64,000 nt of DNA from positions 6,201-70,200 of the forward strand of contig JAKSTW010000002.1 in NCBI GenBank assembly GCA_024402405.1. The letters are read 5' to 3'. The notes beneath the pieces are model-generated. The model had not been told where the DNA came from, made no database searches, and saw only the letters and a list, made by a program, of their open reading frames with translations. Shown here piece after piece: positions 23,015-64,000 of this stretch (the stretch's first letter is position 1; each line of letters begins with the position of its first letter). The stretch is from Spirochaetia bacterium (lineage in GTDB: Bacteria > Spirochaetota > Spirochaetia > CADAEX01). A program made the position numbers and the translations under genes.

Positions 23015-23638
23015 TTGATTTATTCGGAGGATCGAATGGAAGCTGTTACACGTATTTCTATTGTGAGACACGGTGAGACTGAATGGAATATTGATGACAG
23101 AATGCAGGGTATCAAAGACAGCCCTCTGACTGACAAGGGTATAAAACTGGCAAAGGAGCTGGGCGAAAAGCTTTCAGACATGAAATTTTCCAGAATCTAT
23201 ACCAGCGACCTGGGAAGAGCTTTTGATACTGCAAAATATATAAATGAGAGACTTGATCTGGAGATCGTCCCGGAGAAGCTGCTCCGTGAGCGCAATATGG
23301 GAATTTTCGAGGGATACAGCTGGGCTTATGTAAAGGAGCATTATCCTGAGGAGTTCAGAAAGACTGTCTCCGATGACATGGAGTACCGTATCCCTGGGGG
23401 ACAGAGCAAACAGGATTATGTGGACCAGATTGCGGATTTCATGAAATTCATCACTGAAAAGCATCCGGGAGAGAATATTCTGGCTGTGACACACCGTGGT
23501 TTCATCGACTTTTTCATGCGCCAGGTTATGGGCATATCTGTGAATGCCAGAAGATGCTTCAAGGTTGGTAATACCAGCCTTAATGTATTCTCATTTGAGA
23601 AAGGACGCTGGGTGCTGGAACATTTCGGAGATATCTGA
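23015..23638 (+). CDS. Histidine phosphatase family protein (phosphoglycerate mutase-like)
   Basis: It has the RHGETEWN catalytic motif. The start may be the M at 23036. Confidence 0.7.
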   Translation: MIYSEDRMEAVTRISIVRHGETEWNIDDRMQGIKDSPLTDKGIKLAKELGEKLSDMKFSRIYTSDLGRAFDTAKYINERLDLEIVPEKLLRERNMGIFEGYSWAYVKEHYPEEFRKTVSDDMEYRIPGGQSKQDYVDQIADFMKFITEKHPGENILAVTHRGFIDFFMRQVMGISVNARRCFKVGNTSLNVFSFEKGRWVLEHFGDI

Positions 23639-23868
23639 TGTTCTTTGTGGGTATCATGGGTGTCGACAGCAGAGATAACATGCTCCGGGAACTGCCGGAA
23701 GAGAAATGCCATGTCTGCGGAAAGACCGGCGGCTGCACACTTTATCAGCTTTACAGCAGTTTTTCCCTTTTTTTTATCCCTGTATTCAACTGGGGCTCAC
23801 GATATGTGGTGCGGTGCAGTCACTGCGATTCAGTTTACAGCGTAGCGGAAGAAGAGTATGAGCGATAA
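23638..23868 (+). CDS. Small zinc-ribbon protein (hypothetical)
   Basis: CxxC...CxxC pairs (CHVCGK...CSHCDS) flank a hydrophobic segment. Its start and stop overlap the flanking genes. Confidence 0.35.
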   Translation: MFFVGIMGVDSRDNMLRELPEEKCHVCGKTGGCTLYQLYSSFSLFFIPVFNWGSRYVVRCSHCDSVYSVAEEEYER

Positions 23869-27612: not shown

Positions 27613-27733
27613 AGAAGTTCAAAATAATTAGTTAGATAAATTAAATAATTCTCATTTTTTCAGTTGACAGATGAAAAAACTTGTTATAGATTTTTCTTTG
27701 TGGTTTTTTGTGGCCACCAAAATGGAGAATTTA

Positions 27734-28960: not shown

Positions 28961-28977
28961 GCTGACAGTTTCTGTAT

Positions 28978-28991
28978 TGCATAAGTATGCA
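28978..28991. promoter_or_regulatory. Perfect 14-bp palindrome TGCATAagTATGCA immediately upstream of argR; candidate operator (ARG-box-like)
   Basis: The palindrome is seen directly in the sequence and lies 23 bp upstream of the argR ATG. Calling it an operator is an inference from its position. Confidence 0.3.
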
Positions 28992-29013
28992 CACGGTGGT
29001 ATAATTATGCAAT

Positions 29014-31303: not shown

Positions 31304-31313
31304 GGAGATATAA

Positions 31314-39640: not shown

Positions 39641-41422
39641 TCAGCGGATCAATGCCTTGGGTGATCTGCCTATAAGATCCCTGCGTCCTGCCAGGATCAG
39701 TGCTTTGCGTACTTTTTCCCTGTTCTCCGGCTTGTGGAAATGGAGCAGAGCACGCTGCATATTCTTCTCCTCCTCTGTCCCCGGCACATATACTTTCTTC
39801 ATTGTCAGCGGATCATAACCGGTATAATACATGCAGGTGGAAACAGTTCCTGGGGTAGGATAGAAATCCTGCACCTGGTCTGGTATGAACTTCTCATCCC
39901 GGAGGAATTCTGCCAGTTCTATTGCTGCCTTCAGGTCGCTGCCGGGATGTGAGGATATGAGGTATGGGATAAGATATTGTTTTTTCCCTATCCGCTCATT
40001 TTCCTCTTTGAACATCTTCTCAAATTTTCTGTAGACTTCCGGCCGTGGCTTGCCCATCAGATCCAGCACTCTGGCGCAGATATGTTCCGGTGCTATCTTC
40101 AGCTGTCCGCTTATGTGGTGTTGGCACAGCTCATGGAAAAATTCCTGGCTGCTGTCGGAGAGCAGATAATCAAAACGGATTCCAGACTTGATGAATACTT
40201 TTTTTATTCCAGGTATTGCCTTGAGCTTTCTGAGCAGTTCCAGATAATCCTCATGGCTTACCTTCATGTTTGGGCATGGCTTGGGAAAAAGGCATCTTCT
40301 GTCCTGACATGCTCCTGATTTCAGCTGCTTGTCGCAGGCAGGCTGCCGGAAATTGGCTGTAGGACCTCCCACGTCATTTATGTATCCCTTGAAATTCGGT
40401 TTCTTTGTCAGCCTGATTGCCTCGTCTATTATTGATTGATGGCTTCTGGCCTGAATGATCCTTCCCTGGTGGAATGTAAGGGCACAGAAATTGCAGCTGC
40501 CGAAACAGCCTCTGGCACTTATGAGACTGAATTCCACTTCCTTTATGGCCGGTACACCTCCATCTTTCTCATAGCATGGATGATATGTGCCCATATATGG
40601 CAGTGCATATACTCTGTCCATTTCCTCTGTTGTGAGGATTTTTGCGGGAGGGTTCTGGATCATATACTGGGTACCGGTTTTCTCAACCAGCATCTTGGCT
40701 GAGAATGGGTCTGTATTTCTGTACTGGATCGCAAAGCTCTTGGCAAAAGTTTTTTTGTCTGCCAGATCTTCCTCATATGATGGCAATGTTATGAGATCAC
40801 CTTCCGGGAGCTGTGAGCTTTTGACCACTGTCCCCCGGATGTCTTTCATATTTTTTATCTCCTCTCCTGCTTTGATGCGGCGGGAGATCTCCCAGAAAGG
40901 ATTCTCACCCATGCCATAGATCAGCATGTCTGCCTTGGAATCTGTCAGTATGGATCGGCGGAGTGAATCTGACCAGTAGTCGTAGTGGGAGAGTCTCCGG
41001 AGAGATGCTTCGATTCCTCCGATGATGATAGGGATGCCCTTGTATGCCTGCTTGGCCAAGGATGTATATACGATGATGGCTCTGTCCGGTCTCTTTCCTG
41101 CTATACCGCCAGGTGAGTACTGGTCTTTGCTACGGCGCTTGCTCTTTGATGAGAAATTTGCCACCATGGAATCCACATTTCCTGCATTTATCAGAAATGC
41201 CAGCTTCGGACGTCCCAGTGTCTTCACTGACTCAGGATCCTTCCAGTCAGGCTGAGGTATGATTCCTACCCTGAAACCTTCTGCTTCCAGCACTCTGGAT
41301 ACAATGGCAGTTCCGAAAGAAGGGTGATCCACATAGGCATCACCTGTAATTATGGCAAAATCAACAGAATCCCATCCTCTATTATGCATGTCTTCTTCTG
41401 AAATCGGCAGAAAATCTCTCAT
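39641..41422 (-). CDS. ygiQ: YgiQ-family (UPF0313) radical SAM protein
   Basis: It has a CxxxCxxC cluster (CFGSCNFC) and matches the YgiQ family N- and C-terminally. Length is 593 aa. Confidence 0.8.
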   Translation of the reverse strand: MRDFLPISEEDMHNRGWDSVDFAIITGDAYVDHPSFGTAIVSRVLEAEGFRVGIIPQPDWKDPESVKTLGRPKLAFLINAGNVDSMVANFSSKSKRRSKDQYSPGGIAGKRPDRAIIVYTSLAKQAYKGIPIIIGGIEASLRRLSHYDYWSDSLRRSILTDSKADMLIYGMGENPFWEISRRIKAGEEIKNMKDIRGTVVKSSQLPEGDLITLPSYEEDLADKKTFAKSFAIQYRNTDPFSAKMLVEKTGTQYMIQNPPAKILTTEEMDRVYALPYMGTYHPCYEKDGGVPAIKEVEFSLISARGCFGSCNFCALTFHQGRIIQARSHQSIIDEAIRLTKKPNFKGYINDVGGPTANFRQPACDKQLKSGACQDRRCLFPKPCPNMKVSHEDYLELLRKLKAIPGIKKVFIKSGIRFDYLLSDSSQEFFHELCQHHISGQLKIAPEHICARVLDLMGKPRPEVYRKFEKMFKEENERIGKKQYLIPYLISSHPGSDLKAAIELAEFLRDEKFIPDQVQDFYPTPGTVSTCMYYTGYDPLTMKKVYVPGTEEEKNMQRALLHFHKPENREKVRKALILAGRRDLIGRSPKALIR

Positions 41423-42461: not shown

Positions 42462-43460
42462 TTATCTTTTAAGTGCCATTGCACAGATTTTCTCGCACAG
42501 ATCTCCGAAAGAGATTCCCATTTTTGCCGCAGACTGGGGGAGCAGACTGGTGGCTGTCATACCTGGCAGAGTATTGATCTCCAGCACATAAATCTCGCCT
42601 TCCGGTGTCATCCTCAGATCGACTCTGCAGTAATTCTCGATTTTTGCTGCTTTGGCTGCAGCCAGTGCTATGGAACGCATTCTGTCTGATACAGCACTGC
42701 TGAGAGGTGCCGGGAAGATCTCCTCTGCTCCGCCTGGCATATATTTGCTCTGGAAGTCAAAGATCTCTGAAAGCTTAGGAATTATCTCACCGACTGCCAG
42801 CGCCTGTCCGTCCAGGATGCCGACTGTGAATTCCCTGCCTGGAATGAACTTTTCAAGCATGACCTCTGTATCATATTTACAGGCTGTTTCCACAGCTTTC
42901 TGCAGATCCTCCTGTTTCTTCACAACAGTGAGTCCTACTGTGGAGCCCTCTTTGTTAGGCTTGACGATAAGAGGAAGGCCCAGTTTCCGGACTGCTGCAT
43001 CCAGATCTGTGGGCATCATCAGCCATTCCGGAGTCGGAACTCCGTTTCTGACGAACATCATCTTTGAGATGTCCTTATCCATGCAGCATGCGCTCGGTGT
43101 GTGGGACGGACCTGTGTATGGAATGCCCATTATGTCCAGGAATCCCTGCATGGCACCATTTTCTCCCTTGCCGCCGTGAAGTGCCAGAAAGCATACATCT
43201 ATATTTTTAAAGATTCCCTGTGCTATAAGCGGCAGAAGTCCTCCTGTCATCATCTTCAGGCTGTCTGTGTCCGGTGGCAGCGGCGGCACCTTGCTGCTGA
43301 GAAATGCCTCCTCGTCCTGTGGCTTTATAAGGCCGGTTGCGGTATCTATGGCAATGACATTGTGTCCTCTGTCCCTCAGAACTTTGAAAACCTGGGCAGC
43401 ACTGGCGATGGAGACATCACGCTCTGAGCTCTGTCCCCCGAAAAGTACAGCTATATTCAT
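42462..43460 (-). CDS. ddl: D-alanine--D-alanine ligase
   Basis: It has the N-terminal motif VLFGGQSSERDVS and an ATP-grasp domain. Length is 332 aa. Confidence 0.85.
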   Translation of the reverse strand: MNIAVLFGGQSSERDVSIASAAQVFKVLRDRGHNVIAIDTATGLIKPQDEEAFLSSKVPPLPPDTDSLKMMTGGLLPLIAQGIFKNIDVCFLALHGGKGENGAMQGFLDIMGIPYTGPSHTPSACCMDKDISKMMFVRNGVPTPEWLMMPTDLDAAVRKLGLPLIVKPNKEGSTVGLTVVKKQEDLQKAVETACKYDTEVMLEKFIPGREFTVGILDGQALAVGEIIPKLSEIFDFQSKYMPGGAEEIFPAPLSSAVSDRMRSIALAAAKAAKIENYCRVDLRMTPEGEIYVLEINTLPGMTATSLLPQSAAKMGISFGDLCEKICAMALKR

Positions 43461-44818: not shown

Positions 44819-46426
44819 ATGTCTGAATTGGTATTGTTGGGAGATGAGGCAGTTGCTCTGGGTGCCATCCATGCCGGACTTTCCGGTGCCTATGGTTATC
44901 CTGGAACACCATCATCTGAGATACTTGAATATCTTATAAATGAAGCAGAGAAGACAAAGGCTTTCCATGCTTCCTGGTGCAGCAATGAGAAGACTGCTTA
45001 TGAGGATGCTCTTGGAACTTCTTTCGCAGGAAAGAGAGCAATTGTAACAATGAAGCATGTTGGTCTTAATGTGGCGGCTGATCCGTTCATGAACTCAGCA
45101 CTGCTGAAGATCAATGGCGGTCTGGTTATCGTTGTGGCTGATGACCCTGGTATGCACTCATCACAGGGTGAGCAGGATTCTCGTTTCTTCGCTGATTTTG
45201 CCAAGGTTCCATGTTTCGAACCTACCAACCAGCAGGAAGCTTATGAGATGACCCGCGAGGCTTTCGATATTTCTGAAAAATACAAGGTGCCTGTGCTTAT
45301 GAGAATGGTGACAAGACTGGCTCATTCCAGGGCTGTTATCACACCATGGGATAAGGTGAGGGCACAGAATCCGGTGAAACGTCCTGAAGATACAAAGGGA
45401 TGGAGACTGCTTCCTGCCCTGGCACAGAAACTCTGGGTTGAACTGCTGGAGACAAACAAGGAGTTTGCAGCATATTCTGAACAGACACCATTCAATAAAC
45501 TTACAATAAATCCTGACTGCAAGAAACTGGGTATCATCACAACAGGGCTGGGAAAGAACTATTTTGAAGAGAACCTGCCTGATATGGACTGCAAGCCTTC
45601 TCATCTGCATATCGGTTTCTATCCTGCTCCTGTGGAGAAGATCAGAAAACTGGCAGAAAATGTTGATAAGATTCTGGTTATAGAAGAAGGCTACCCTGTA
45701 ATTGAAACAAGACTCCGCGGTATTCTGCCACAGAATATTGCCATTGAGGGAAAACTTGACGGTAAGGTTCCTATGACCGGAGAGCTGGATCCGGATGTTG
45801 TCAGACCTGCTCTTGGACTGAGCAGAATTCCTAGCCGGAAAGTTGAAGGTCTTCCTGGACGTCCTCCACAGCTGTGCCAGGGCTGTCCTCATGTTGATTC
45901 CTATGAGGCTATCAATCTGGCTGTCAAGGACTATCCGCAGCACATTGTGGCTTCTGATATCGGATGCTATTCACTTGGTGCCCTGCCACCATATTGTGCC
46001 ATCGAGACGATCATCTGCATGGGTGCGTCCATCGGAACAGCACAGGGAGCTGCTGAAGCTGGTCTGAAACCTGCACTGGCTGTGATCGGTGACAGCACAT
46101 TCTATCATTCCGGTCTTACAGGACTGGTCAATGCAGTTGCTGCCAATGCACCTATGACAGTCATTATCCTGGATAACTCAACTGTGGCTATGACCGGGGG
46201 ACAGAGCACAATACTGCCATCCAGCAAACTGTATAATCTGGTCATCGGTCTTGGTGCTGATCCTGAGCATGTCAAAACTATTGTTCCTCTCAAGAAGAAT
46301 CTGGAGGAGAATGCGGCCATAATCAAGAAAGAAATGGAATATGAGGGATTGTCTGTCATCATTTCTGTAAGGGAATGTCTGGAAGAGGCAAAACGCCGTA
46401 TGAAAAGGGAGAGCTTGAAAAAATGA
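44819..46426 (+). CDS. iorA: Indolepyruvate:ferredoxin oxidoreductase alpha subunit
   Basis: It has a TPP-binding domain and ferredoxin-type Cys motifs (CQGCPH), followed by iorB. Confidence 0.8.
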   Translation: MSELVLLGDEAVALGAIHAGLSGAYGYPGTPSSEILEYLINEAEKTKAFHASWCSNEKTAYEDALGTSFAGKRAIVTMKHVGLNVAADPFMNSALLKINGGLVIVVADDPGMHSSQGEQDSRFFADFAKVPCFEPTNQQEAYEMTREAFDISEKYKVPVLMRMVTRLAHSRAVITPWDKVRAQNPVKRPEDTKGWRLLPALAQKLWVELLETNKEFAAYSEQTPFNKLTINPDCKKLGIITTGLGKNYFEENLPDMDCKPSHLHIGFYPAPVEKIRKLAENVDKILVIEEGYPVIETRLRGILPQNIAIEGKLDGKVPMTGELDPDVVRPALGLSRIPSRKVEGLPGRPPQLCQGCPHVDSYEAINLAVKDYPQHIVASDIGCYSLGALPPYCAIETIICMGASIGTAQGAAEAGLKPALAVIGDSTFYHSGLTGLVNAVAANAPMTVIILDNSTVAMTGGQSTILPSSKLYNLVIGLGADPEHVKTIVPLKKNLEENAAIIKKEMEYEGLSVIISVRECLEEAKRRMKRESLKK

Positions 46427-47057: not shown

Positions 47058-47178
47058 GCTCTGTCCCCCTTGGAATATTTTATTTATAACATCATAAATA
47101 AAATAAATTATGATATATGAATTTTCCCTTTTCTTTCTTTCATTAGACTGGAAAATTGAATTTTTTGGGGGACAGAGC
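47058..47178. repeat. REPIN-like doublet: perfect 12-bp inverted repeats GCTCTGTCCCCC / GGGGGACAGAGC enclosing a 97-bp AT-rich spacer
   Basis: The inverted repeats are read directly from the sequence. The same core recurs at least 13 more times in the window. Confidence 0.6.
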
Positions 47179-47235: not shown

Positions 47236-47706
47236 ATGAGCAGAAAGTGCAGGGTGATTGTGGATGGTGGTGTTTATCACATTTATAACAAAATAAATGC
47301 ATGTGAGTATCTTCTGGCAGATTCGGAGACAAAAGATTTATTTCTGAAAGTACTGACAGAAGCTAAAAAAATCAAAGAATTCAGATTCAGAATCAAAAAT
47401 CTTACGATCATGAATAATCATATTCATATGCAGGTAAAAATGGATCGCGGTGAAAATCTTTCCAAGGTAATGCAGTGGATATTTTCAGTATTTGCACAGA
47501 GATATAATAGAAAATATAGCAGAAAAGGACATCTGTGGATTGACAGGTTCAAGAGCAAAGTTATTGAAAGCATAACTACATTTGAAAAGGTTTTTGAATA
47601 TATAACAAATAATCCTGTCAAAGCTGGAATTGTCAATCATGCGGAAGATTATGAATATGGAGTGTTTCATATTTCAAGGAAATGGATAGGGCTTATAGAT
47701 TTTTAA
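47236..47706 (+). CDS. REP-associated tyrosine transposase (RAYT) / IS200-like Y1 HUH transposase (COG1943-type)
   Basis: It has the HUH motif HIHMQV, an N-terminal YHIYNK motif, GHLWIDRF and the hallmark C-terminal YITNNPVKAGIV motif. It is flanked by inverted copies of the GGGGACAGAG repeat. Confidence 0.65.
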   Translation: MSRKCRVIVDGGVYHIYNKINACEYLLADSETKDLFLKVLTEAKKIKEFRFRIKNLTIMNNHIHMQVKMDRGENLSKVMQWIFSVFAQRYNRKYSRKGHLWIDRFKSKVIESITTFEKVFEYITNNPVKAGIVNHAEDYEYGVFHISRKWIGLIDF

Positions 47707-47718: not shown

Positions 47719-47728
47719 CTCTGTCCCC
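47719..47728. repeat. Copy of the CTCTGTCCCC repeat (inverted relative to the copy at 47167), 13 nt downstream of the RAYT stop
   Basis: This is an exact 10-mer match. Confidence 0.6.
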
Positions 47729-47756: not shown

Positions 47757-48926
47757 ATGACCGATATGAATATTCTTAAAGGGCTCGTACATACTATTAT
47801 TCCTGAGATCGTGGAAATACGTCATCAGCTTCATCAGATCCCAGAGATTGCATTCAAAGAATATAAGACCTCAGCAAAAATAAGAGAAATTCTTGAACCT
47901 CTTGGGATGGAATTTTTACCGTCTATTTTTGAAACTGATGTGACTGCTGTTCTGGATAGTGGTAAACCTGGAAAAACTATTCTTCTGCGGAGTGATATCG
48001 ATGCTCTTCCGATAGAAGAGGCATGTTCTGTCCCCTATAGATCCCTGCATCCTGGATTTGCCCACAGTTGCGGTCATGATGGTCATATGGCGATTCTTTT
48101 GGGAACTGCCATGGTCCTTTCCAAAATGAAAGAACAGATAAATGGCAAGGTTAGGTTTTTATTTCAGCCGGGAGAAGAGAGTCTGGCAGGTGCAAAAAGT
48201 ATGGTGGAGGCTGGATATCTTCAGAAGGAGCCGGTTCCTGATGTGGCCTATGCTCTTCATGGATGGCCGGGGACAGAGCACGGATGTATAGAGTGCTGTC
48301 CTGGTCCTATCATGGCGTCCACTGATGATTTTATGATCACTCTTACCGGCGCAGGAGGCCATGGTGCCATGCCTGAGAAAGCTGTTGATCTGCTGGCTGC
48401 TGCTGCCGGGTTTATTCTTGCCATGAAAGAAGCTGTTTCCTGGATCTCAGCTCCATATGATCCGGCTGTGGTTTCTGTCTGTTCTGTTGAGGGAAAAGGC
48501 ACTTTCAATGTATTTGCTGACAGGATCATCCTGAAGGGAACCTCCCGTTATCTGAAAGATTCCACAGGAAATAAGATAAAGAAAACCATGGTGGAGCTTC
48601 TGGATAAATATATTCTTCCTTCAGGGGGGAAGTATGAGATAGTCAGTCCTCTGCCTGATTATGTTTCTGTGAATAATGATCCTGAACTTTATTCCCGTGC
48701 TGCTGAAATTGCTGAAAAGTATCTTGGCCGGGAAAAATGGAATGGCAATGGTATCTGTTCCATGTGTGGCGATGACTTCGGTTTTATCTCCAGAAAGATC
48801 CCAAGCCTTTATTTCCGATTGGGTGCGGGGACAGAGCACGCATCACTCCACAATCCTGCCTATGACTTTGCAGATGACACCATTGAGGACGGCATTCTCA
48901 TGATGTGCGGTCTGGTTCTTGGTTGA
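47757..48926 (+). CDS. M20D-family amidohydrolase (N-acyl-amino-acid amidohydrolase/hippuricase-like)
   Basis: It has the metal-binding motif SCGHDGH. The start is moved to MTDMNILKG; the ORF-track start at 47682 overlaps the RAYT. Confidence 0.7.
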   Translation: MTDMNILKGLVHTIIPEIVEIRHQLHQIPEIAFKEYKTSAKIREILEPLGMEFLPSIFETDVTAVLDSGKPGKTILLRSDIDALPIEEACSVPYRSLHPGFAHSCGHDGHMAILLGTAMVLSKMKEQINGKVRFLFQPGEESLAGAKSMVEAGYLQKEPVPDVAYALHGWPGTEHGCIECCPGPIMASTDDFMITLTGAGGHGAMPEKAVDLLAAAAGFILAMKEAVSWISAPYDPAVVSVCSVEGKGTFNVFADRIILKGTSRYLKDSTGNKIKKTMVELLDKYILPSGGKYEIVSPLPDYVSVNNDPELYSRAAEIAEKYLGREKWNGNGICSMCGDDFGFISRKIPSLYFRLGAGTEHASLHNPAYDFADDTIEDGILMMCGLVLG

Positions 48927-54383: not shown

Positions 54384-55624
54384 TGAAAGGGAAGAGAGTG
54401 GTCATTACCGGGTTGGGTACTGTAAATCCGCTTGGTAACAATGTGTCTGAATTCTGGCAGGGACTGATGGATGCCAGATGCGGTATTGGTCTGATTACCA
54501 GATATGATGTCTCAGATTCAGAAGTTAAGATCGCAGGTGAGGTGAGGGATTTTGATCCTTCTTCTGTTATTGACAGAAAAACTGCCAGACGGATGGATCT
54601 TTTCTCCCAGTATGCCGTATATGCTTCTGCAGAGGCAATAAAGGATGCTTCCTTTGAGGAGAAATTCTGGGATGGGGACAGAGCAGGACTGGTGCTGGGG
54701 GTCGGTACCCTTGGCTGGACATCTGCTGAAGAAGGCTACGGAAAAATATTTTCTGGCGGTGAATCACGTGTTCCTGTTTTTACTATTCCTAAGATTATTC
54801 CTAATCTTGGTGCTGGAAATGCGGCCATGGCACTGCAGCTGCATGGTCCGTGCTTCTCTCTTTCCACTGCCTGTGCGTCAGGTGCTGATGCCATAGGAAA
54901 TGCGGCCAGGCTGATTGAATCAGGATATTGTGATGTGATGCTGGCAGGGGGGACAGAGGCGGGAATATCCAGACTGTGTATGGGCGGATTTGCCGCTATA
55001 CAGGCCCTGACGATGACTCATAATGATTCTCCTGAGATCTCAAGCCGTCCTTTTGACAGAGACCGGGATGGTTTTGTCATGGGGGAGGGAGCTGGAATGC
55101 TGGTGCTGGAGGATTATGAACATGCTGTCCGACGTGGGGCCAGGATTTATTGTGAGGTCGCTGGTTACGGCTCCACATGTGATGCTTATCATATGACGGC
55201 TCCTGAGCCTGACGGAAAATATTCGGTGAAAGCTATGAGCCGGGCATTGGAAAATGCAGGTATGGGGACAGAGGATATACAGTATATCAATGCCCATGGT
55301 ACTTCCACTGTATTAAATGACAGAATGGAGACCCGTGCTATAAAAAATATGTTCGGAGAGCAGGCATACAGGCTGAAAGTCTCATCGATAAAGTCCATGC
55401 TGGGACACTGTATCGGAGCTGCCGGAGCCATAGAGGCAATTTCATCGGCCCTGACACTGTATCATCAGTGGATACCTCCTACGATCAATTATGAAAATCC
55501 TGATCCTGAATGTGACCTTGATTATGTCCCGGGCAGGGGAATATCTGCAGAGGTCAGCGGTGTCATGTCAAATTCTTTCGGATTTGGCGGTCATAATTCA
55601 GTTTTGGTATTCCGCAGGATATAG
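54380..55624 (+). CDS. fabF: 3-oxoacyl-ACP synthase II
   Basis: It has the active-site Cys in ...LSTACASGADAIG, and His motifs (AHGTST, GHCIGAAGA). Confidence 0.85.
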   Translation: MMKGKRVVITGLGTVNPLGNNVSEFWQGLMDARCGIGLITRYDVSDSEVKIAGEVRDFDPSSVIDRKTARRMDLFSQYAVYASAEAIKDASFEEKFWDGDRAGLVLGVGTLGWTSAEEGYGKIFSGGESRVPVFTIPKIIPNLGAGNAAMALQLHGPCFSLSTACASGADAIGNAARLIESGYCDVMLAGGTEAGISRLCMGGFAAIQALTMTHNDSPEISSRPFDRDRDGFVMGEGAGMLVLEDYEHAVRRGARIYCEVAGYGSTCDAYHMTAPEPDGKYSVKAMSRALENAGMGTEDIQYINAHGTSTVLNDRMETRAIKNMFGEQAYRLKVSSIKSMLGHCIGAAGAIEAISSALTLYHQWIPPTINYENPDPECDLDYVPGRGISAEVSGVMSNSFGFGGHNSVLVFRRI

Positions 55625-56388
55625 GCAGACCAGCAGTAAGCTGCTATTCCGAAAGCTACTCCCACATTGATGGATTTTTTAACTCCGAAAAGTGGGATCG
55701 ATACTACTCCTCCGCTGCTTCTTGCTATTTCCAATGTCTCCGGACTGACCCCTGTTTCTTCCGAGCCAAGTATCATGATTCCATTTTCAGGAAATTTGAA
55801 TTCTTCTATGGGTGTACCATCTGTCTCCAGTGCAAATATGCTCTGTCCCCGGTGTGCGGCTTCCTTGAGTTCTGACAGTTCTGCCTGTCTCCAGCTGATC
55901 TTCTCCTCTGTCCCCATGGCGCTGCGTTTTGCTCTTGGCTGTTCTGGAGTTGGTGTTGCCGGAGAAAGCAATACTTCTGAAAAACAGAACGATTCTGCTG
56001 TCCTGAAGATTGAACCCACATTGAATGGAGACCGTAGATTCTCCAGATATACAGAAATCGGAAGTAGTCTGCGGCTGTCTCCGGCTGCATCAGTGTCCAG
56101 CATATCCCAGTCAGCGTACTGTATTCCGGCTTTATCCAGAATCTTATATTTCAGACTGTCCGCAGCCCATAGTGCTTCCGGACCATCAAGGCGGACTGCC
56201 AGATCTTCGATTTCTTCCTGAAACCTCTGTCCCCCTGATATAGCTGCTGCATTCAGGATCATCCGGAGATACTGAACATCTATTTCTTTTCCTTCTTTCA
56301 GTTGTTTTTCCGCATCTTTCAGTATAAGTGCCGCTTTCCTGTATTGAAGTCTGGGATCCAGTGATCTGAATTTTTTTTCTGTAAACAT
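55591..56388 (-). CDS. SpoU/TrmH-family RNA 2'-O-methyltransferase with N-terminal extension
   Basis: It has SPOUT motifs (NVGSIFRTAESF...ILGSEETGVS...INVGVAFGIAAY). Confidence 0.65.
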   Translation of the reverse strand: MFTEKKFRSLDPRLQYRKAALILKDAEKQLKEGKEIDVQYLRMILNAAAISGGQRFQEEIEDLAVRLDGPEALWAADSLKYKILDKAGIQYADWDMLDTDAAGDSRRLLPISVYLENLRSPFNVGSIFRTAESFCFSEVLLSPATPTPEQPRAKRSAMGTEEKISWRQAELSELKEAAHRGQSIFALETDGTPIEEFKFPENGIMILGSEETGVSPETLEIARSSGGVVSIPLFGVKKSINVGVAFGIAAYCWSAYILRNTKTEL

Positions 56389-56798: not shown

Positions 56799-57485
56799 TT
56801 AATTATTATTTCCATAAATGCAGACTGCGAACTCACCCTGTATTTTATCTCTCTCAGCCAGATTGTCAAGGACTTCCTTAGCTGTACCGGTTATGAATTC
56901 TTCATACAGCTTGGTCATTTCCCTTCCTGCCACCACATAGCGTTCGGGATCTACACTGCAGATGTCAGTCATGGTCTTCACTATACGGAAAGGGGATTCA
57001 TATATTATGAAACTTTCTTCTTTGGCCATAAGCTCGGCGATTCTTGATGCGCGGCGTCCTGGCTTCGGGGAGAGAAAACCTTCGAATGTGATGGACTTTC
57101 CCTGGACTCCGCTGACACTTATAAGCGTGGTGAGCGCTGATGCCCCGGGTATTGGAGTTATTTTGTATCCTGCTTCCCTGGCAGCCCTTACCAGCGAGCT
57201 TCCGGGATCACTGACTCCAGGTGTGCCTGCATCACTGACATAAGCCACATCCTTATCCTGTTCCAGCAAATGCAGTATTTTAGCAATGCCGGGTTTCTCA
57301 TCAGCCGCATAATAACTTATGAGCGGTTTCCTGATCTCCAGTCTGTTCAGCAGTTTTATAGTGTGTCTGGTATCCTCGCAGGCAATGGTGTCCACTTTCT
57401 TCAGTGTCTCAATTGCCCTCAGTGTTATATCATCCAGATTCCCTATTGGTGTTGCAACGATAAATAATTCAGCCATATTCACCAT
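56799..57485 (-). CDS. rsmI: 16S rRNA (cytidine1402-2'-O)-methyltransferase
   Basis: It has a tetrapyrrole-methylase fold and the RsmI N-terminus LFIVATPIGNLDDIT...ACEDTR. Confidence 0.8.
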   Translation of the reverse strand: MVNMAELFIVATPIGNLDDITLRAIETLKKVDTIACEDTRHTIKLLNRLEIRKPLISYYAADEKPGIAKILHLLEQDKDVAYVSDAGTPGVSDPGSSLVRAAREAGYKITPIPGASALTTLISVSGVQGKSITFEGFLSPKPGRRASRIAELMAKEESFIIYESPFRIVKTMTDICSVDPERYVVAGREMTKLYEEFITGTAKEVLDNLAERDKIQGEFAVCIYGNNN

Positions 57486-57516
57486 AATGATAATGTAAAT
57501 TTATGCAAAACGCAAG

Positions 57517-57798
57517 TCAGCACAGATTCTGAAACTCTTTTACCAATTCTGAAATGATGGCTACCTGCTTTGAAGTGAGACCTGAAACATCTACGACATG
57601 ATTTGATTTTACGGAAAGAAGGTAATCGGTGGAAACCTTGAAAATAGTGGCAAGTTCAATAAGGTACTGGGTACTTGGAACTGATATTCCCTGCTCCCAG
57701 GCATTTACACTGGCTCTGGTTATTCCCAGCTTTTTTGCAAGGGCATTCTGTGTCAGATCACTGGCCTCTCTGAGATCTTTAATTTTATCAGCAATCAT
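57517..57798 (-). CDS. XRE-family helix-turn-helix transcriptional regulator
   Basis: It has an HTH_3 motif (LTQNALAKKLGITRASVNAWE). It is divergent from the downstream lipoprotein gene. Confidence 0.6.
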   Translation of the reverse strand: MIADKIKDLREASDLTQNALAKKLGITRASVNAWEQGISVPSTQYLIELATIFKVSTDYLLSVKSNHVVDVSGLTSKQVAIISELVKEFQNLC

Positions 57799-57918
57799 AA
57801 TTAAATAATATATAATGGTCAAAATGATATTTCATTATCAAAATGATGTTTATAATTGACATTATTTTTTAATATTTGTATTCTCCTAGGTACAAATTAT
57901 TATAAAAGGAGAGGAAAA

Positions 57919-59787: not shown

Positions 59788-59838
59788 GCCAGTTCAGATT
59801 TTGAGTTTTAACACAGACATCCTATGCCGGGTGCCTGT

Positions 59839-59875
59839 GCTCTGTCCACCAACTGCGGTGGACAGAGCTTTTATT
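59839..59875 (+). terminator. Rho-independent terminator whose stem is a variant of the window-wide repeat (GCTCTGTCCACC-aactgc-GGTGGACAGAGC + TTTTATT)
   Basis: It is a perfect 12-bp stem located 52 nt after the lipoprotein stop. Confidence 0.6.
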
Positions 59876-59892
59876 CAGAAAAGAGGATATTT

Positions 59893-60156
59893 ATGAAACA
59901 TTACACTGATGAGTTCAAGCGGAAGGCTGTGGTACTGTCCGAGGAGATAGGATGCCGGGATGCAGCTGAACAGCTGGGCGTGTCGTATTATACCCTCTCA
60001 GACTGGCGGCGGAGAAAGAACATAAGACCAGAAGAATCGCAGCAGAGGGAAGAATATCTGCCAGATGCAGAACTTCTCCATGAGGTGCATTATCTCCGTG
60101 AAGCCAACGCCCTATTACAGCGCACTGTGGATTACCTCCTGAAACAACAGGTCTGA
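59893..60156 (+). mobile_element. IS3-family transposase OrfA (HTH + leucine-zipper part) with no OrfB: probable IS remnant
   Basis: The 88-aa product (MKHYTDEFKRKAVVLSEEIG...LREANALLQRTVDYLLKQ) matches IS3/IS911 OrfA. The next gene starts 15 nt later on the opposite strand, so there is no orfB and no inverted-repeat end. Confidence 0.55.
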
Positions 60157-60170
60157 AGTTCTGCGTCAGG

Positions 60171-61394
60171 TCACTCCAGCATCAGGTGTGCCATCACCTT
60201 GGCATCGACAGCCAGGCTCTCTATGGTCGTGTTCTCATCAGGCATATGGCATGTCTCGTCTATTGTTGACCAGACCGCAGCATTTATCCCTTTGTTCCTC
60301 AGATATGCGGCTACGGTTCCTCCTCCTATTCCTATGAGACGGACCTCTTTTCCTGTCACTGCGGTTATGGCTTTTTTCAGTCTGCTGACGATCTGACAAT
60401 CTTTATCTGTTGCTTTTGACACTGATTTCTGCACTGTAGTTATGGTAATGCTGACTCCATATTTCTGTTCAACATGGACACATATATCATTTATGCGCTG
60501 GAAGACTGACTCTATATCGACAGACGGAAGTATCCTGCAGTCCAGATAGAATATATCTTCTCCCGGTATTGTATTGACATTAGGAATATTATTCTCTTTC
60601 TTTGTAGGGGCAAAAGTCGAATATGGCGGATCGAATAGTGCATCCTGGTAGACTTTGAACTCATTCTCCAGCTCTGCCAGATTCAGTATCAGACGGCTGG
60701 CTGCCACCATGGCATTTTTCCCCAGGGCCGGCATGGATGCATGACACTGAACTCCCCTGGTTGTGAATTTCAGCCAGAGCATGGATTTCTCTGCTATTTC
60801 TATTTCTGTTCCATCAGAAGAACCTGAGTCAGGGATAAGTATCAGATCTTCTTTTCTGAACATATCAGGATATTCCCTCAGTATATAGTTGAGACCGTAT
60901 ACTGAGCCGATTTCCTCATCTGCTATAAACATAAGCTTCACTGTATATTCAGGAATCAGATCATTCTCTTTGAGGGCAAGTGCGGCCATGACAGATGAGA
61001 CTATTCCATGCTGGTTGTCTTCCACACCTCTTCCGTACAGTCTTCCGTCTCTGACCACGACTTTATATGGATCGCTGTGCCAAAGAGACAGATCTCCGGG
61101 AGGAACCACATCAACATGGCTTATGATCCATATGGTTCTGTCATCTTTTTCCCCAGGTATTGTAAGGATCAGGCTTGGACGCACTCCATGAGATGCTTTG
61201 GCATCAGGAGCATTTATATATTCAAAGTTTTCAAAACCTCTGTCCCTCAGCCATTTTTCCAGTGCATGGGCTTTTCTGTATTCTCCCTCACCACCGGAAA
61301 GTGGAGAAATTGCCGGAATGGATGAGAGCAGGGTCTCCAGCTCGATGATAGTATCCAGATTGCTGTCAATGAATTTGGTTATAGCAGTTTTCAT
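60171..61394 (-). CDS. M20-family metallopeptidase/deacylase (ArgE/DapE/PepV-like)
   Basis: It has the motifs HVDVVP, GRGVEDNQHG and the Asp-Glu motif IADEE. Confidence 0.65.
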   Translation of the reverse strand: MKTAITKFIDSNLDTIIELETLLSSIPAISPLSGGEGEYRKAHALEKWLRDRGFENFEYINAPDAKASHGVRPSLILTIPGEKDDRTIWIISHVDVVPPGDLSLWHSDPYKVVVRDGRLYGRGVEDNQHGIVSSVMAALALKENDLIPEYTVKLMFIADEEIGSVYGLNYILREYPDMFRKEDLILIPDSGSSDGTEIEIAEKSMLWLKFTTRGVQCHASMPALGKNAMVAASRLILNLAELENEFKVYQDALFDPPYSTFAPTKKENNIPNVNTIPGEDIFYLDCRILPSVDIESVFQRINDICVHVEQKYGVSITITTVQKSVSKATDKDCQIVSRLKKAITAVTGKEVRLIGIGGGTVAAYLRNKGINAAVWSTIDETCHMPDENTTIESLAVDAKVMAHLMLE

Positions 61395-61480
61395 AATTTC
61401 TCCTGCGGATATTCAAAATTTTTTCTGTTTTATATATACTGCTTTTTTAGATAAAAGTATATCATTTTAACGGAGAGATT

Positions 61481-62770
61481 ATGCGACTTCTTAGAATTTT
61501 GATTTATATCCCTGTCTGCCTGCTGCTTTTGGCTGGCTGTGGATCCCGTATGGGATATTTTGTCATGATCTGGCCTGATGATAATTCTGACATTGAGAAT
61601 GGAACTGTTTTTCCTGTTAAAGGTGAGTCAAATCTCAGACAGACATATATTGTTGATATGGGCAATAAGACATACGTTGAGATTGATAAATTCAGGGGAC
61701 AGTTCTTCAAGACCCTCAAAGAGGCTCAGAATTATGGCGAGGCATTTCTTCCATACAAGGATATGTTCGCATCTGTCAACAGGAAGACACCTGTAAGAGA
61801 AGCTGCTGATGAGCACAGTTCCAGGATCTATATTCTCAGGGAAGGACAGATAGTAAAAATAGTTGGCCGCGGCGAGTCAAAAGTTGTGATAGACAACAGG
61901 TTCGAGGGTTACTGGTATCAGATCGTGACAGATGACGGTGTTTCCGGTTATTGCTTTGACAGAAATCTCTCAGTTTTTGACAGTACTGACAAACTGGTTT
62001 CAGAATATGCCACCAGCAATGATGTCAACATGCACAATTTCATGAATGCCAGATGGTATCCGATGGCATACAGGGAGACACTGGACAGTGAATACCCGCA
62101 GCTGAATATTCTCAGAAGCGGAGAGGTCCTTTTTGCTGATCCAGAGAAAAAAGAGATCAGACTCAGAACACCGGAGGAAGAGATCATATTCCGTTACACA
62201 TCCATGGTGCAGACTGCTGATAACCGTGTCTCATTCAATGGTACTCCGCTGGAGCTCCAGTTCTATCCGGATGGCAGAATATTTATACGGTATTCATATA
62301 ACGGATTGGACTGCTCTGGTTTTTATATGACTCTGGATAAGGATATAACAGAATATATTGCAGAGATAAATGAACAGAAGGAGAATGAATATTCCGAACT
62401 GTTTGGTCGTGTTCAGTCTTTTGGAAGCACAGATTATGGAACCATCACTTTTCAGCCTGACAAGAAGTTTTACTGGACTGATTATGATGGGATCAGCTAT
62501 CTGATTCCTGCTGAGTCTGGAATTTCAGGTCTTGTTGATAATGATAAATATGTGTCAAATGTGATCAGGACAAGGTTTAAATGCGATGCCCTTCTGTCTC
62601 TGACTTTTGCGAAGAATGCGAGGGAAGTCAGCTTCATCTGCAGAAAAGAGAAAAATGGCAATCTGCAGCTGATTTTTATTCCGAAGGAAGATCTGGCTAC
62701 AGGAGTTCTCACAAGGATTCCTGCTGAACCTGTCATGCTTATATTCTCACCATTGAAGGATAACGAATAA
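61481..62770 (+). CDS. Hypothetical lipoprotein
   Basis: It has a lipobox (LLLAGCGS). No family was recognised. Confidence 0.5.
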   Translation: MRLLRILIYIPVCLLLLAGCGSRMGYFVMIWPDDNSDIENGTVFPVKGESNLRQTYIVDMGNKTYVEIDKFRGQFFKTLKEAQNYGEAFLPYKDMFASVNRKTPVREAADEHSSRIYILREGQIVKIVGRGESKVVIDNRFEGYWYQIVTDDGVSGYCFDRNLSVFDSTDKLVSEYATSNDVNMHNFMNARWYPMAYRETLDSEYPQLNILRSGEVLFADPEKKEIRLRTPEEEIIFRYTSMVQTADNRVSFNGTPLELQFYPDGRIFIRYSYNGLDCSGFYMTLDKDITEYIAEINEQKENEYSELFGRVQSFGSTDYGTITFQPDKKFYWTDYDGISYLIPAESGISGLVDNDKYVSNVIRTRFKCDALLSLTFAKNAREVSFICRKEKNGNLQLIFIPKEDLATGVLTRIPAEPVMLIFSPLKDNE

Positions 62771-64000
62771 TGGCTTTTGTAAATCTTACCGGAGTTTCTC
62801 TGGCCTTCGGGGACAGAGATGTGCTTAAGGATGTGAATCTGAATATCTGCACTACTACCAGGGCTGCTATCACCGGAGCCAACGGCAGCGGCAAGACCAC
62901 ATTCCTGAAAATTATGGCTGGGAAGCTGTCACCTGACAAGGGTTCAACTATTATTCAGAAAGGGACACGTATCAGTTATCTGCCCCAGACAGGTCTTACT
63001 CATGCAGGCTCCACACTTATGGAAGAGGTGGAGAAATCATTCTCTTTTTTCCATACTCTCATAGCACGCAAGGAAGAAGTCGGGCGCCGTCTTGAGAATT
63101 ATATGCAGGAGACCAAGGAGGAGACCCAGCGTCTTCTGGAGGAAGATCATGATATCCAGGAAACTTTGCTGAACAGCGGATTTTATGACCGTAAGATAGT
63201 TAAGGAGAAAGTTCTGCTGGGACTTGGTTTTTCCAGAAATGACTTTGAAAAGAAGACCGAGGCTTTTTCCGGCGGATGGCAGATGCGCATAGCTCTGGCC
63301 AAGATTCTGCTGGAGAACCCTGATATCATGCTGCTGGACGAGCCTACCAACTACCTTGATCTGGAGGCCCGGCTATGGCTGGAGGATTTCATCAGTTCTT
63401 TCCATGGCGGAGTGGTTCTGGTTTCCCATGACCGATCTTTTCTTGATTCGACTGTAAATGAGATATATGAGCTGTTCGGCGGTACAATGAACCGTTATAA
63501 AGGTAATTACTCTGAATATGAGAAGCGGCGCAGCCAGGAGCTTGAGTCCCTGGTGAACCGTTATAAGCAGCAGCAGGATGAGATTGCCAAAGTCGAGCTT
63601 TTTATCCGCCGTTTCCGCTATCAGGCTACCAAAGCCAAACAGGTGCAGAGCCGTATAAAATATCTGGAGGGGCTTGAGCGCATTGAGATTCCTGAGAGCC
63701 TTAAAAAGATGCATTTCTCTTTTCCTGAGCCTCCACATTCCGGCAATGATGTTTTGATCCTGGAGGATCTGAGCAAGGCTTATGGCGATAACCATGTCAT
63801 AAATCATCTGGATTTCTTTGCCGCGAAAGGAGAGAAGATAGTCTTTGCCGGAAAAAACGGTGCCGGAAAATCTACCCTTATGCGTATAATCGCAGGAAAA
63901 GACAAGAATTATACCGGACTTGTGAAATATGGCAAGGATGTGAAGATAGAATATTTCTCCCAGGATTTTGAGGCCACACTGGATGATTCCAAGACAGTGG
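62770..64000 (+). CDS. ABC-F family ATPase (two tandem ABC domains), 3'-truncated by window end
   Basis: The first domain has Walker A GANGSGKTT, the signature FSGGWQMR and LLLDEPTNYLD. The second Walker A is GKNGAGKST. The start ATG overlaps the upstream stop (TAATG). The reading frame is open to the window end. Confidence 0.75.
   Translation, partial: MAFVNLTGVSLAFGDRDVLKDVNLNICTTTRAAITGANGSGKTTFLKIMAGKLSPDKGSTIIQKGTRISYLPQTGLTHAGSTLMEEVEKSFSFFHTLIARKEEVGRRLENYMQETKEETQRLLEEDHDIQETLLNSGFYDRKIVKEKVLLGLGFSRNDFEKKTEAFSGGWQMRIALAKILLENPDIMLLDEPTNYLDLEARLWLEDFISSFHGGVVLVSHDRSFLDSTVNEIYELFGGTMNRYKGNYSEYEKRRSQELESLVNRYKQQQDEIAKVELFIRRFRYQATKAKQVQSRIKYLEGLERIEIPESLKKMHFSFPEPPHSGNDVLILEDLSKAYGDNHVINHLDFFAAKGEKIVFAGKNGAGKSTLMRIIAGKDKNYTGLVKYGKDVKIEYFSQDFEATLDDSKTV

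Follow-up and report, generated by a model that had tools for sequence, protein, structure and literature searches.

The 10-mer GGGGACAGAG, with the wider consensus S-GGGGACAGAG-S-A, is probably (at roughly 0.8) the cognate DNA repeat of an HUH/Y1 transposase of the RAYT/TIRYT type encoded at 47236-47706 of the window, i.e., the whole 64-kb stretch of DNA analyzed here, and it likely serves this enzyme as REPs or terminal inverted repeats serve other RAYTs. It is unusual that most copies in the source lineage lie inside ordinary or housekeeping genes and are restricted to the neighborhood of the RAYT gene.

Seventeen exact copies of GGGGACAGAG are present in the window when both strands are counted, which makes it by far the most over-represented 10-mer of this stretch, against an expectation of about 0.1 (0.09 by dinucleotide shuffles of the window, 0.10-0.13 under Markov models of orders 1-4, and 0.84 under order 5). 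The over-representation described in the initial annotation and its expectation of ~0.1 copies per 64 kb both stand, also under the higher-order Markov comparison that it had proposed (17 versus 0.84, run on the window), but its count of 15 overlooked the copies at 46197(+) and 54949(+), and two of its starts, 43428 and 47167, were off by one (43429 and 47168). The near-copies it listed are all present (1684, 40826, and the hairpin at 59840/59858), as are its two extended sub-families, GGGGACAGAGCACG, seen twice, and GGGGACAGAGGAG, seen three times. A tally of the flanking bases over the window copies gives S-GGGGACAGAG-S-A as the effective motif: 14 of the 17 copies are preceded by G or C, and the second base past the word is A in 9 of the 13 copies located in coding sequences (CDSs). 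All but one of the copies (16 of 17) lie within 39.7-62.8 kb, with just one in 1-39 kb and none in 1-23 kb, and the local density is as high as ~1 copy per 1.4 kb. The transposase gene, the exact copies, and one near-copy hairpin are as follows.

47236..47706, plus strand: RAYT gene, predicted HUH/Y1 transposase of 156 aa (NCBIfam, Pfam, PDB match, conserved motifs)
47168..47177, plus strand: proximal upstream copy GGGGGACAGAGCA, putative left terminal repeat, 58 nt before the RAYT ATG
47059..47068, minus strand: distal upstream copy, in the opposite orientation to 47168, with which it forms a REPIN-like doublet
47719..47728, minus strand: downstream copy, putative right terminal repeat, inverted relative to 47168, intergenic, 12 nt past the RAYT stop codon
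52313..52322, minus strand: intergenic copy within the carB terminator hairpin, in its loop and 3' arm (12-bp stem, then T-run; z = -3.3)
23397..23406, plus strand: histidine phosphatase CDS copy (PGGQSK), the sole copy far from the RAYT gene (-24 kb)
39773..39782, minus strand: YgiQ-like radical SAM CDS copy (VPGTEE), sense
43429..43438, minus strand: ddl CDS copy (FGGQSS), sense-oriented, coinciding with the conserved N-terminal GGxS motif
46197..46206, plus strand: 2-oxoacid:ferredoxin oxidoreductase alpha-like CDS copy (TGGQST), in place relative to a relative
48269..48278, plus strand: M20 peptidase CDS copy (WPGTEH), in place, length unchanged
48827..48836, plus strand: M20 peptidase CDS copy (GAGTEH), in place, sharing the 14-mer GGGGACAGAGCACG with the 48269 copy
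54674..54683, plus strand: fabF CDS copy (DGDRAG), in a variable region, beside a site where the L085 ortholog differs in length by one codon
54949..54958, plus strand: fabF CDS copy (AGGTEA), in place at the conserved GG(V/T)E motif
55264..55273, plus strand: fabF CDS copy (GMGTED), in place relative to a relative
55841..55850, minus strand: TrmH-family methyltransferase CDS copy (HRGQSI), adjoining a lineage-specific 5-aa insertion
55906..55915, minus strand: TrmH CDS copy (AMGTEE), in place at the invariant MGT motif
56225..56234, minus strand: TrmH CDS copy (SGGQRF), within a lineage-specific variable or inserted segment
62809..62818, plus strand: ABC-F CDS copy (FGDRDV), at the N-terminus, kept in strain L084
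59839..59868, no strand assigned: near-copy hairpin GCTCTGTCCACC-6 nt-GGTGGACAGAGC, then T-run; a single substitution is mirrored between the arms

The ORF at 47236-47706 is, as judged from its sequence, a REP-associated tyrosine transposase (RAYT) of the HUH/Y1 kind. The protein matches Pfam Y1_Tnp (3.4e-13) and scores 81.1 bits against NCBIfam NF047646, barely above the cut-off of 80, and 4ER8 (E. coli TnpA_REP) is the one PDB entry that it matches. Its HuH motif is NHIH and its Y motif is YITNNP, accompanied by an LWIDRF motif, and the HuH histidines and the catalytic tyrosine are invariant among RAYT homologs. The 64 kb contain one RAYT gene, and a second paralog in the same MAG is merely 62% identical; low copy number with divergent paralogs, instead of identical IS copies, is the pattern of RAYT/TnpA_REP genes.

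Of the four intergenic copies, all but 52313(-) bracket the RAYT gene in inverted orientation, either at most 180 nt upstream or 12 nt downstream. The downstream copy, 47719(-), lies in the intergenic spacer and would belong to the M20 gene only if that gene were drawn as the longest ORF. The two upstream copies, 47059(-) and 47168(+), close a 14-bp stem (ATGCTCTGTCCCCC / GGGGGACAGAGCAT), whose DNA folding z-scores are -4.8 on one strand and -5.6 on the other, and the counterpart of this doublet in the RAYT-homolog locus L173 is a perfect 18-bp hairpin. The layout of L173 is alike, with a copy directly after the RAYT stop codon, as is that of L089, where 11 exact copies were found in 9.4 kb, and a TTGAAGCA-like box follows the proximal upstream copy in many loci with RAYT homologs. 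Elsewhere in the window, the near-copy hairpin at 59839..59868 folds as a 12-bp stem (z = -3.9), and strain L084 is without the 2.7-kb segment that contains it.

The motif was also sought in 80 unrelated metagenomic loci encoding RAYT homologs (40-53% identical; GC 25-67%). In most of the loci of at least 7 kb, the top 10-mer is a variant of this motif, GGGAC[AG]GA[GC], and the core motif has 713 matches in the 0.57 Mb of these loci versus 23 in 1.30 Mb of control loci. About half of the 80 loci have a '+' copy at a distance of 55-100 nt on the upstream side of the gene, and in most of the remaining ones the upstream copy is more distant or inverted; the inverted flanking layout recurs in many of them, with a variable downstream distance. 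Across this GC range, the motif variant tracks the RAYT protein clusters and not host GC, and some lineages have just two copies, those flanking the RAYT gene.

The motif might instead be the site of a host DNA-binding protein (nucleoid-associated, regulatory, or Chi/KOPS-like), with the RAYT gene as one of its targets, since the upstream copy adjoins promoter-like boxes and regionally clustered binding sites such as matS and parS exist. However, across phyla the motif changes together with the RAYT protein clusters, an indication that the RAYT is its reader, and a density of up to 1 copy per 0.4-1.4 kb in essential genes is far above that of known macrodomain sites. Both orientations occur in the one window, and this lack of strand polarity argues against Chi or KOPS; a polar motif of that type was rejected, as nine '+' and eight '-' copies are interleaved across 23 kb while the cumulative GC skew rises monotonically. 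A host-protein site is consequently considered highly improbable.

A somewhat less improbable, yet still unlikely, explanation is that the motif was already abundant in the host and served as the insertion target of the RAYT gene, which would then have followed the motif, similar to IS200/IS605 elements, which insert 3' of a fixed short target. The same-orientation upstream copy at the near-constant distance of 55-100 nt in about half of the loci resembles such a left-flank target, and compared with L081, a relative in which the RAYT gene is missing from the syntenic site, the window has the RAYT cassette as an insertion. On the other hand, relatives without the RAYT are also without the motif (no exact GGGGACAGAG copies in 20.7 kb of L081), there is an inverted copy downstream as well as an inverted doublet upstream, the motif variant goes with the RAYT clade and not with the host, and no independent reason is known why hosts so unlike one another should all be rich in the same core. 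Regional confinement of the copies is likewise not predicted unless they clump for another reason.

This confinement is evident at several scales. Of the 17 window copies, 15 are no farther than 9 kb from the RAYT gene (p = 6e-7), with the caveat that the RAYT gene is itself flanked by copies and that conditioning on it would inflate the nearby density if copies are clumped for some other reason. In 24 full-length flanks of RAYT-homolog loci, cluster-collapsed counts per 2-kb bin decay with distance from the gene (53, 43, 39, 28, and 13; chi-square p = 2.4e-5). In a complete Acetoanaerobium replicon, all cognate copies (34/34) are located between -80 and +1.3 kb of a distant RAYT homolog, a span of 81 kb, and 250 kb sampled elsewhere on this replicon contained no cognate copies. 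Extra copies build up in the kilobases around the RAYT gene and not genome-wide, a pattern that for the source genome is read from 68 kb, the 10-kb metagenomic decay, and one distant complete-genome analog.

The pointer to a RAYT in the initial annotation was the decisive lead. Another of its suggestions, a DUS/USS-like or otherwise genome-wide signal, is contradicted by the clustering of the copies around that gene. Such a signal would have been spread by uptake or recombination drive, with the RAYT gene being among the copies by chance, and it would account for a locally dense word of 10-12 nt, for CDS copies in all frames by in-place substitution, for inverted pairs at terminators, and for lineage-specific variants. 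It does not account for the lack of copies in 1-23 kb and the single copy in 1-39 kb of the same contig, the decay in density away from the RAYT gene, the motif family accompanying RAYT homologs in the 80 loci across GC 25-67% with a variant that matches the RAYT clade, the lineages with just two gene-flanking copies, or the 81-kb confinement in the Acetoanaerobium replicon, and very little credence is left for it.

Inside genes, the motif is a nucleotide-level signal. The 13 intragenic copies of the 17 are all sense-oriented and use all three frames, as the initial annotation had stated for the twelve exact or near-exact copies that it counted in genes, and are translated as G-T-E (six), G-Q-S/R (five), and G-D-R (two). 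A null model that fixes the protein sequence and the per-gene codon usage expects 0.28 sense copies versus the 13 observed, and GGG accounts for only 8% of Gly codons; the earlier view that this is not a peptide motif is thereby supported. The exactness of the CDS copies is kept up, with 13 exact and 11 one-mismatch sense copies versus 0.06 and 2.4 expected under the null.

The sense-strand bias, by contrast, is largely compositional. A codon-permuted null already places 69-75% of copies in the sense orientation because the word is purine-rich, and thus the 13/13 sense copies give a p of only ~0.014. The initial annotation had also raised recognition at the RNA level; a site read by an RNA-binding protein, a nuclease, an sRNA, or the ribosome would explain the mRNA-sense placement of all 13 exact CDS copies and the Shine-Dalgarno-like GGGG and GAGG held in the word. 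However, most of the bias is explained once codon composition is modeled (sense fraction of 0.69-0.75), and related RAYT-homolog loci contain 177 sense versus 149 antisense copies, the latter including four within one POR gene and several within Mur ligase genes. Intergenic copies in the window also lie both ways relative to transcription, and Rfam yielded no matches in the window, making an RNA-level site extremely improbable.

Comparison of 11 CDS copies with homologous genes indicated that ~8 or 9 are length-neutral rewrites of already existing near-cognate, glycine-rich codon runs, and two are associated with short in-frame insertions. At 46197, where the gene product is 92% identical to the protein of a relative, the relative has ACA GGC GGT CAG GCA and the window ACC GGG GGA CAG AGC. 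The M20 gene has PGTEHG for PGIPFG, at equal length (48269), and GAGTEHA for GMGEESP (48827), while fabF has GGG GGG ACA GAG for GGC GGC GTG GAG (54949) and ATG GGG ACA GAG for CTT AAG CCG GAG (55264). In the TrmH gene, ATG GGA ACC GAT of the relative corresponds to ATG GGG ACA GAG (55906), a site where the L083 lineage (61% identical) has the motif as well, and the 55841 copy is polymorphic, with CAG in strain L084 versus CGG in the window (Q versus R), which abolishes the exact match. Gap-free alignments were obtained between FGGQSSE of the ddl copy (43429) and FGGSSEE of PDB 8EVX, and between the histidine phosphatase copy (23397) and GGES in PDB homologs. Some copies in the POR gene of L168 and the window TrmH gene coincide with in-frame insertions of 5-10 aa.

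E. coli TnpA_REP is established to cleave its cognate single-stranded DNA and to carry out strand transfer on it (PMC8266576, PMC3479197), and for this reason a similar mode of action may be proposed for the RAYT, with single-stranded GGGGACAGAGSA as the candidate substrate to be bound or cleaved, as E. coli TnpA_REP does with its own REP. The enzyme would recognize the motif when it is single-stranded, likely at the replication fork, and may act preferentially close to its own gene, creating or maintaining exact copies nearby, of which purifying selection would spare only those that keep the frame with tolerated residues (G-T-E, G-Q-S, G-D-R). The in-place copies could arise by templated short-patch conversion or by stepwise substitutions fixed by local drive. 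Two observations run against a cognate repeat. The motif is not a hairpin, while characterized TnpA_REP enzymes require a folded REP: motif logos have 10-14 informative positions without dyad symmetry, and inverted partners near solo copies are no more frequent than expected by chance, which, together with the predominance of CDS copies, agrees with the initial remark that the motif is unlike classical REPs. In addition, simple HUH cut-and-paste adds DNA, leaving the length-neutral rewriting of conserved codons unexplained. A more speculative and rather doubtful extension is that this RAYT clade is a local genome editor, acting in cis on single-stranded DNA close to its own gene by templated, length-neutral patch conversion of near-cognate sequences into the 10-14-nt word, including in essential genes. 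If true, a few codons would be rewritten at a time, and repeats would be disseminated in a manner distinct from insertion-type transposition.

Among known systems, Neisseria DUS, Pasteurellaceae USS, and cyanobacterial HIP1 are genome-wide words not tied to a transposase gene. The motif resembles them as a short, exact, over-represented word found in CDSs in all frames by substitution, with lineage variants and with inverted pairs that act as terminators, but unlike the evenly distributed DUS and USS it is RAYT-anchored and regionally confined. With IS200/IS605 it shares the HUH/Y1 catalytic core and a repeat-gene-repeat unit of ~560 nt, like a minimal IS; however, the Y motif is Y---NP (YITNNP) instead of Y---Q, and there are neither multiple identical copies nor one-strand subterminal hairpins. 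Membership in IS200/IS605 was rejected, the NCBIfam IS200 score being 28.8 bits versus a cut-off of 55. Intragenic REPs and Rickettsia palindromic elements (RPE) are insertions that add ~7 to 50 residues, and they too are short repeats tolerated in functional protein-coding genes; some window copies are likewise associated with in-frame insertions, although most replace codons with length unchanged, even at GGTE, GGQS, and MGTE.

REPs are imperfect palindromes of 20-40 bp with a 5' GT[AG]G tag (GTAG) and are extragenic and dispersed across the genome. Their REPtrons are reportedly treated by Nunvar 2010, Bertels & Rainey 2011, and Ton-Hoang 2012. A REPtron consists of a RAYT (TnpA_REP) and REP/REPIN/BIME sequences (Corneloup 2021, PMC8266576), and the window has a low-copy HUH/Y1 gene with divergent paralogs, flanked in inverted orientation by its own over-represented repeat, as well as inverted doublets and co-variation of protein and repeat. 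The HUH/Y1 core, HuH motif, and Y---NP tyrosine motif are those of RAYT/TnpA_REP proteins of TnpA_Y1 class 2. The repeat differs in being a non-palindromic word of 10-14 nt without GTAG, with 13 of 17 copies in CDSs and concentrated near the RAYT gene.

The closest known kind is the TIRtron, in which inverted repeats with GGGGWSAS flank RAYT-like genes. In the original description, a RAYT-like Y1 gene (TIRYT) is flanked by inverted repeats that share GGGGWSAS at a near-constant distance (Di Nocera et al. 2013, PMC3733652), and the repeat families are moderately abundant, occurring as single copies, dimers, and clusters (PMC3733652, PMC6006769). Correspondingly, GGGGACAG fits GGGGWSAS exactly, and about half of the loci have a proximal copy 55-100 nt ahead of the gene. 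The TIRYTs, as presented by Quentin et al. 2018 (PMC6006769), form TnpA_Y1 subclass 2.1 and are mostly ~238 aa, with a C-terminal helix-turn-helix and Y[IV]HLNP or YIELNP, whereas the RAYT of the window has 156 aa, no C-terminal domain, and YITNNP plus LWIDRF, and its 250-aa relatives that carry an HTH tail share just 33-38% identity with it. The available parts of both sources do not describe intragenic in-place copies or regional confinement for TIR families (PMC3733652, PMC6006769), and the system described here is set apart from the TIRtron by its short non-palindromic unit, its copies, which are mainly intragenic and arose mainly by in-place codon replacement, and its regional confinement.

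The word GGGGACAGAG is the top over-represented 10-mer of the window, with 17 exact copies in 64 kb (9 on the plus strand and 8 on the minus strand), whereas only 0.09 copies are expected from dinucleotide shuffles, 0.10–0.13 from Markov models of order 1 to 4, and 0.84 from order 5. These counts bear out the over-representation reported in the initial annotation, which had found 15 of the 17 copies, missing those at 46197 and 54949 and placing two starts off by one. Allowing one mismatch brings just 14 more sites, so GGGGACAGAG is a sharply defined word, and flanking bases widen the motif to S-GGGGACAGAG-S-A. Thirteen copies lie within coding sequences (CDSs), all in sense orientation and spread over three frames (six G-T-E, five G-Q-S/R, and two G-D-R). 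Within-gene shuffling of synonymous codons, which keeps the proteins and codon usage, predicts 0.28 sense copies, and GGG is a rare glycine codon in the window (8%); the signal therefore sits in the DNA; the initial annotation had proposed a signal in DNA or RNA rather than in a peptide. Literature string searches for the 10-mer returned unrelated primers only. Another word, the 12-mer GATGATCGTCTC, occurs in four different genes (10065 and 34722 on the plus strand, 46004 and 50797 on the minus strand), with approximately 0.01 copies expected under a Markov model of order 3, and three of the four copies encode E-T-I-I.

Three of the four intergenic copies flank a gene for a REP-associated tyrosine transposase (RAYT), which retains an intact HuH motif (NHIH) and tyrosine motif (YITNNP) and whose sole PDB relative is TnpA_REP of E. 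coli.

RAYT gene and its flanking copies in the window
47236–47706 (+): RAYT, 156 aa; NCBIfam NF047646, 81.1 bits (cut-off 80); Pfam Y1_Tnp, 3.4e-13
47059: GCTCTGTCCCCC, upstream of RAYT
47168: GGGGGACAGAGC, 58 nt 5' of the RAYT ATG
47719: CCTCTGTCCCCG, 12 nt 3' of the RAYT stop codon

The copies at 47059 and 47168 close a 14-bp stem that resembles a REPIN doublet, and those at 47168 and 47719 bracket the RAYT as terminal inverted repeats. In a relative (L081), the 777-nt RAYT cassette is absent from the syntenic junction between the M20 gene and the 2-oxoacid:ferredoxin oxidoreductase (POR) genes, and no exact motif copy occurs in 20.7 kb of this locus. The metagenome-assembled genome (MAG) of the window has a second RAYT paralogue (MCQ2604293.1, on a 45-kb contig), which is 62% identical to the first, and the motif sub-families with C or G after the 10-mer might each be tied to one paralogue.

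The association of gene and repeat recurs at other loci. At a different locus of a related organism (L089), the 9.4 kb around a 62%-identical RAYT contain 11 exact copies: a pair upstream of the gene, an inverted one downstream, and two that form a perfect terminator hairpin, among others. At a third RAYT locus (L173), two upstream copies form a perfect 18-bp hairpin and another copy directly follows the stop codon; a sense copy also occurs within the RAYT coding sequence itself (524–533, LLGTED). A metagenome scan with the RAYT alignment retrieved 80 loci, several of them near-duplicates, with homologues of 40–53% identity on contigs of 25–67% GC. Among the loci of 7 kb or more, most have a variant of this word as their commonest 10-mer (GGGACAGAGC, GGGACAGAGG, GGGACGGAGG, or GGGACAGACC). 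The core GGGAC[AG]GA[GC] occurs 713 times in the 0.57 Mb of the 80 RAYT loci, and unrelated controls totalling 1.30 Mb contain it 23 times. These controls came from a fabF scan of contigs whose listed matches were approximately 50% identical and from other phyla. Approximately half of the 80 loci have a plus-strand copy 55–100 nt upstream of the RAYT homologue, often followed by a TTGAAGCA-like box. Protein and repeat also co-vary, as the A/G variant at the sixth core position tracks RAYT protein clusters and not host GC. A more distant RAYT relative of 252 aa is flanked by GGGACG(T/G)TTCC repeats.

Motif logos have 11–14 informative positions and no dyad symmetry. A hidden palindrome was ruled out because inverted partners near solo copies are not above chance. 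Head-to-tail tandem arrays of the motif with periods of approximately 18–40 nt were observed in three metagenomic loci (L146, 4170–4266; L118, 3119–3231 and 12366–12435; L172, 15584–15762 and 16965–17081), and none were seen in the window. In a distant lineage (L168, GC 37%), the RAYT again adjoins the same pair of POR alpha and gamma genes, on the opposite side.

POR/RAYT neighborhoods compared
6399–9306: L168
44819–47706: window

The copies have a regional footprint around the RAYT. Within the window, 15 of the 17 copies lie no more than 9 kb from the gene (p = 6e-7), and positions 1–23 kb contain no copy of GGGGACAGAG. Across 24 flanks of 9.5 kb or longer, cluster-collapsed counts per 2-kb bin outward from the RAYT are 53, 43, 39, 28, and 13 (chi-square p = 2.4e-5), a density measured from a gene that is itself flanked by copies and hence overstated nearby if copies clump for another reason. 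Acetoanaerobium noterae NZ_CP154629.1 (complete, 2.63 Mb; labelled a plasmid, but probably a chromosome given its size) encodes a 37%-identical RAYT homologue with the cognate unit AATCAnnnGGGACGGTTCTTTTTGATT, a REP-like hairpin with GGGACGG in its loop. All 34 copies of this unit fall in an 81-kb region (342–423 kb; L175, L180, and L181) that runs from −80 kb to +1.3 kb relative to the RAYT homologue; 32 of them lie upstream of it, and nearly all are intergenic. The repeat was absent from 250 kb sampled elsewhere in the replicon, as was the 7-mer GGGACGG from 200 kb sampled outside the copy region. Some RAYT lineages have two flanking copies alone, so local proliferation is lineage-dependent. 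A DNA-uptake-like or other genome-wide signal, as the initial annotation had proposed to explain the excess of copies, is contradicted by this confinement and by a variant that follows the RAYT protein clusters, and a Chi- or KOPS-like reading was also rejected, as copies in both orientations are mixed within the window without polarity.

Codon alignments with motif-free orthologs and comparison with PDB homologues show that most CDS copies replace near-cognate, glycine-rich codons with no change in length.

Peptides at motif copies (relative or PDB homologue, then window)
POR: TGGQA, TGGQS
M20 (48269): PGIPFG, PGTEHG
M20 (48827): GMGEESP, GAGTEHA
FabF (54949): GGVE, GGTE
FabF (55264): LKPE, MGTE
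TrmH (55906): MGTD, MGTE
Ddl: GGSSEE, GGQSSE
His phosphatase: GGES, GGQS

These alignments rule out a pure insertion model for most CDS copies, and insertion is kept for a minority, since lineage-specific insertions coincide with two TrmH copies. Both modes, in place and insertion-associated, are found in the POR gene of L168, which has two in-place copies and two inside insertions of 8–10 aa. Motif-bearing host genes elsewhere are true housekeeping genes, namely PolA, FabD, ABC-F, and MurD/MurE-type ligases that each carry five or six copies. Exact copies exceed one-mismatch copies far beyond expectation, which argues that something maintains or regenerates exactness.

The sense orientation emphasized in the initial annotation holds for the window, where all 13 CDS copies are sense (p ~0.014 against a codon-permuted null), but it is largely expected: the word is purine-rich, and the same null places 69–75% of matches on the sense strand. 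Related loci have 177 sense, 149 antisense, and 174 intergenic copies by crude longest-ORF gene calls, including runs of antisense copies within single genes. The bias is thus not intrinsic to the system. A recognition site in RNA, to which the window's 13 sense copies had seemed to point, does not fit the antisense runs, the 177:149 ratio, or a sense share set by composition, and no Rfam family matches in the window.

TrmH-family and CarB homologues assign the window to a Treponema-like MAG of the Spirochaetia from gut or rumen (GCA_024500545.1), although CarB is too conserved to rank relatives, with all matches approximately 90% identical. The motif copies recur in three assemblies of this species made independently from different samples (L084, L091, and L092; ~99.4% identical), with the one exception of that at 55841, which excludes an assembly or adaptor artifact. 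The copy at 55841 is broken by a single SNP (window 55850 versus L084 9531; CGG/CAG, Arg/Gln in TrmH), one of 37 SNPs across the 6.6 kb compared, which makes or removes an exact motif copy. The fabF gene and the TrmH-family gene converge and share 34 nt at their 3' ends (55591–55624), identically in L084 and similarly in another locus (L085). A 2.7-kb segment of the window (57479–60172) is missing from L084.

Features inside the segment without a counterpart in L084
57856–59787: 643-aa ORF without a Pfam match
59839–59868: near-motif terminator hairpin
59824–60156: 110-aa HTH_Tnp_1 transposase-like ORF

TnpA_REP cleaves its cognate single-stranded DNA and performs strand transfer on it (PMC8266576, PMC3479197). 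By analogy with this biochemistry, we infer that the RAYT protein acts on motif DNA: it may recognize the word on single-stranded DNA, favor the surroundings of its own gene, and generate or maintain the copies nearby. Selection would then keep frame-preserving, tolerated codings, and in-place copies may arise by templated short-patch conversion or by substitutions fixed through local drive. To our knowledge, in vitro work on RAYTs has been limited to hairpin REPs with a GTAG tag.

How RAYTs disseminate repeats, and what role they play for the cell, has been a standing question since their description. The clade described here offers a simpler substrate, a linear word of 10–14 nt, and the mechanism is made testable both by the distance-dependent footprint, which predicts action in cis, and by length-neutral copies in conserved codons, which insertion-type transposition cannot generate. 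This clade is widespread among the retrieved metagenomic contigs over a wide GC range and appears to have altered housekeeping protein sequences (Mur ligases, FabF, Ddl, PolA, and POR). A search for uptake sequences or regulatory motifs, or a screen for horizontal transfer, could be misdirected by such motif clusters.

Among known systems, the element is filed as a variant of the RAYT/TIRtron kind. Classical REPtrons differ in that the window repeat has neither a GTAG tag nor a hairpin, is mostly intragenic in the window lineage, and is regionally confined. The REPs and RPEs known from within genes are insertions. TIRtrons are RAYT-like genes (TIRYTs) with inverted repeats that share GGGGWSAS at a similar distance, and their repeat families are moderately abundant and occur as dimers or clusters (Di Nocera et al., 2013, PMC3733652). 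Most TIRYTs belong to TnpA_Y1 subclass 2.1, with the consensus GGGG[AT][CG]A[CG], according to a later classification (Quentin et al., 2018, PMC6006769). Compared with subclass 2.1, the window RAYT lacks the C-terminal HTH and has the tyrosine motif YIxNNP, whereas the repeat itself, as GGGGACAG, matches GGGG[AT][CG]A[CG] exactly.
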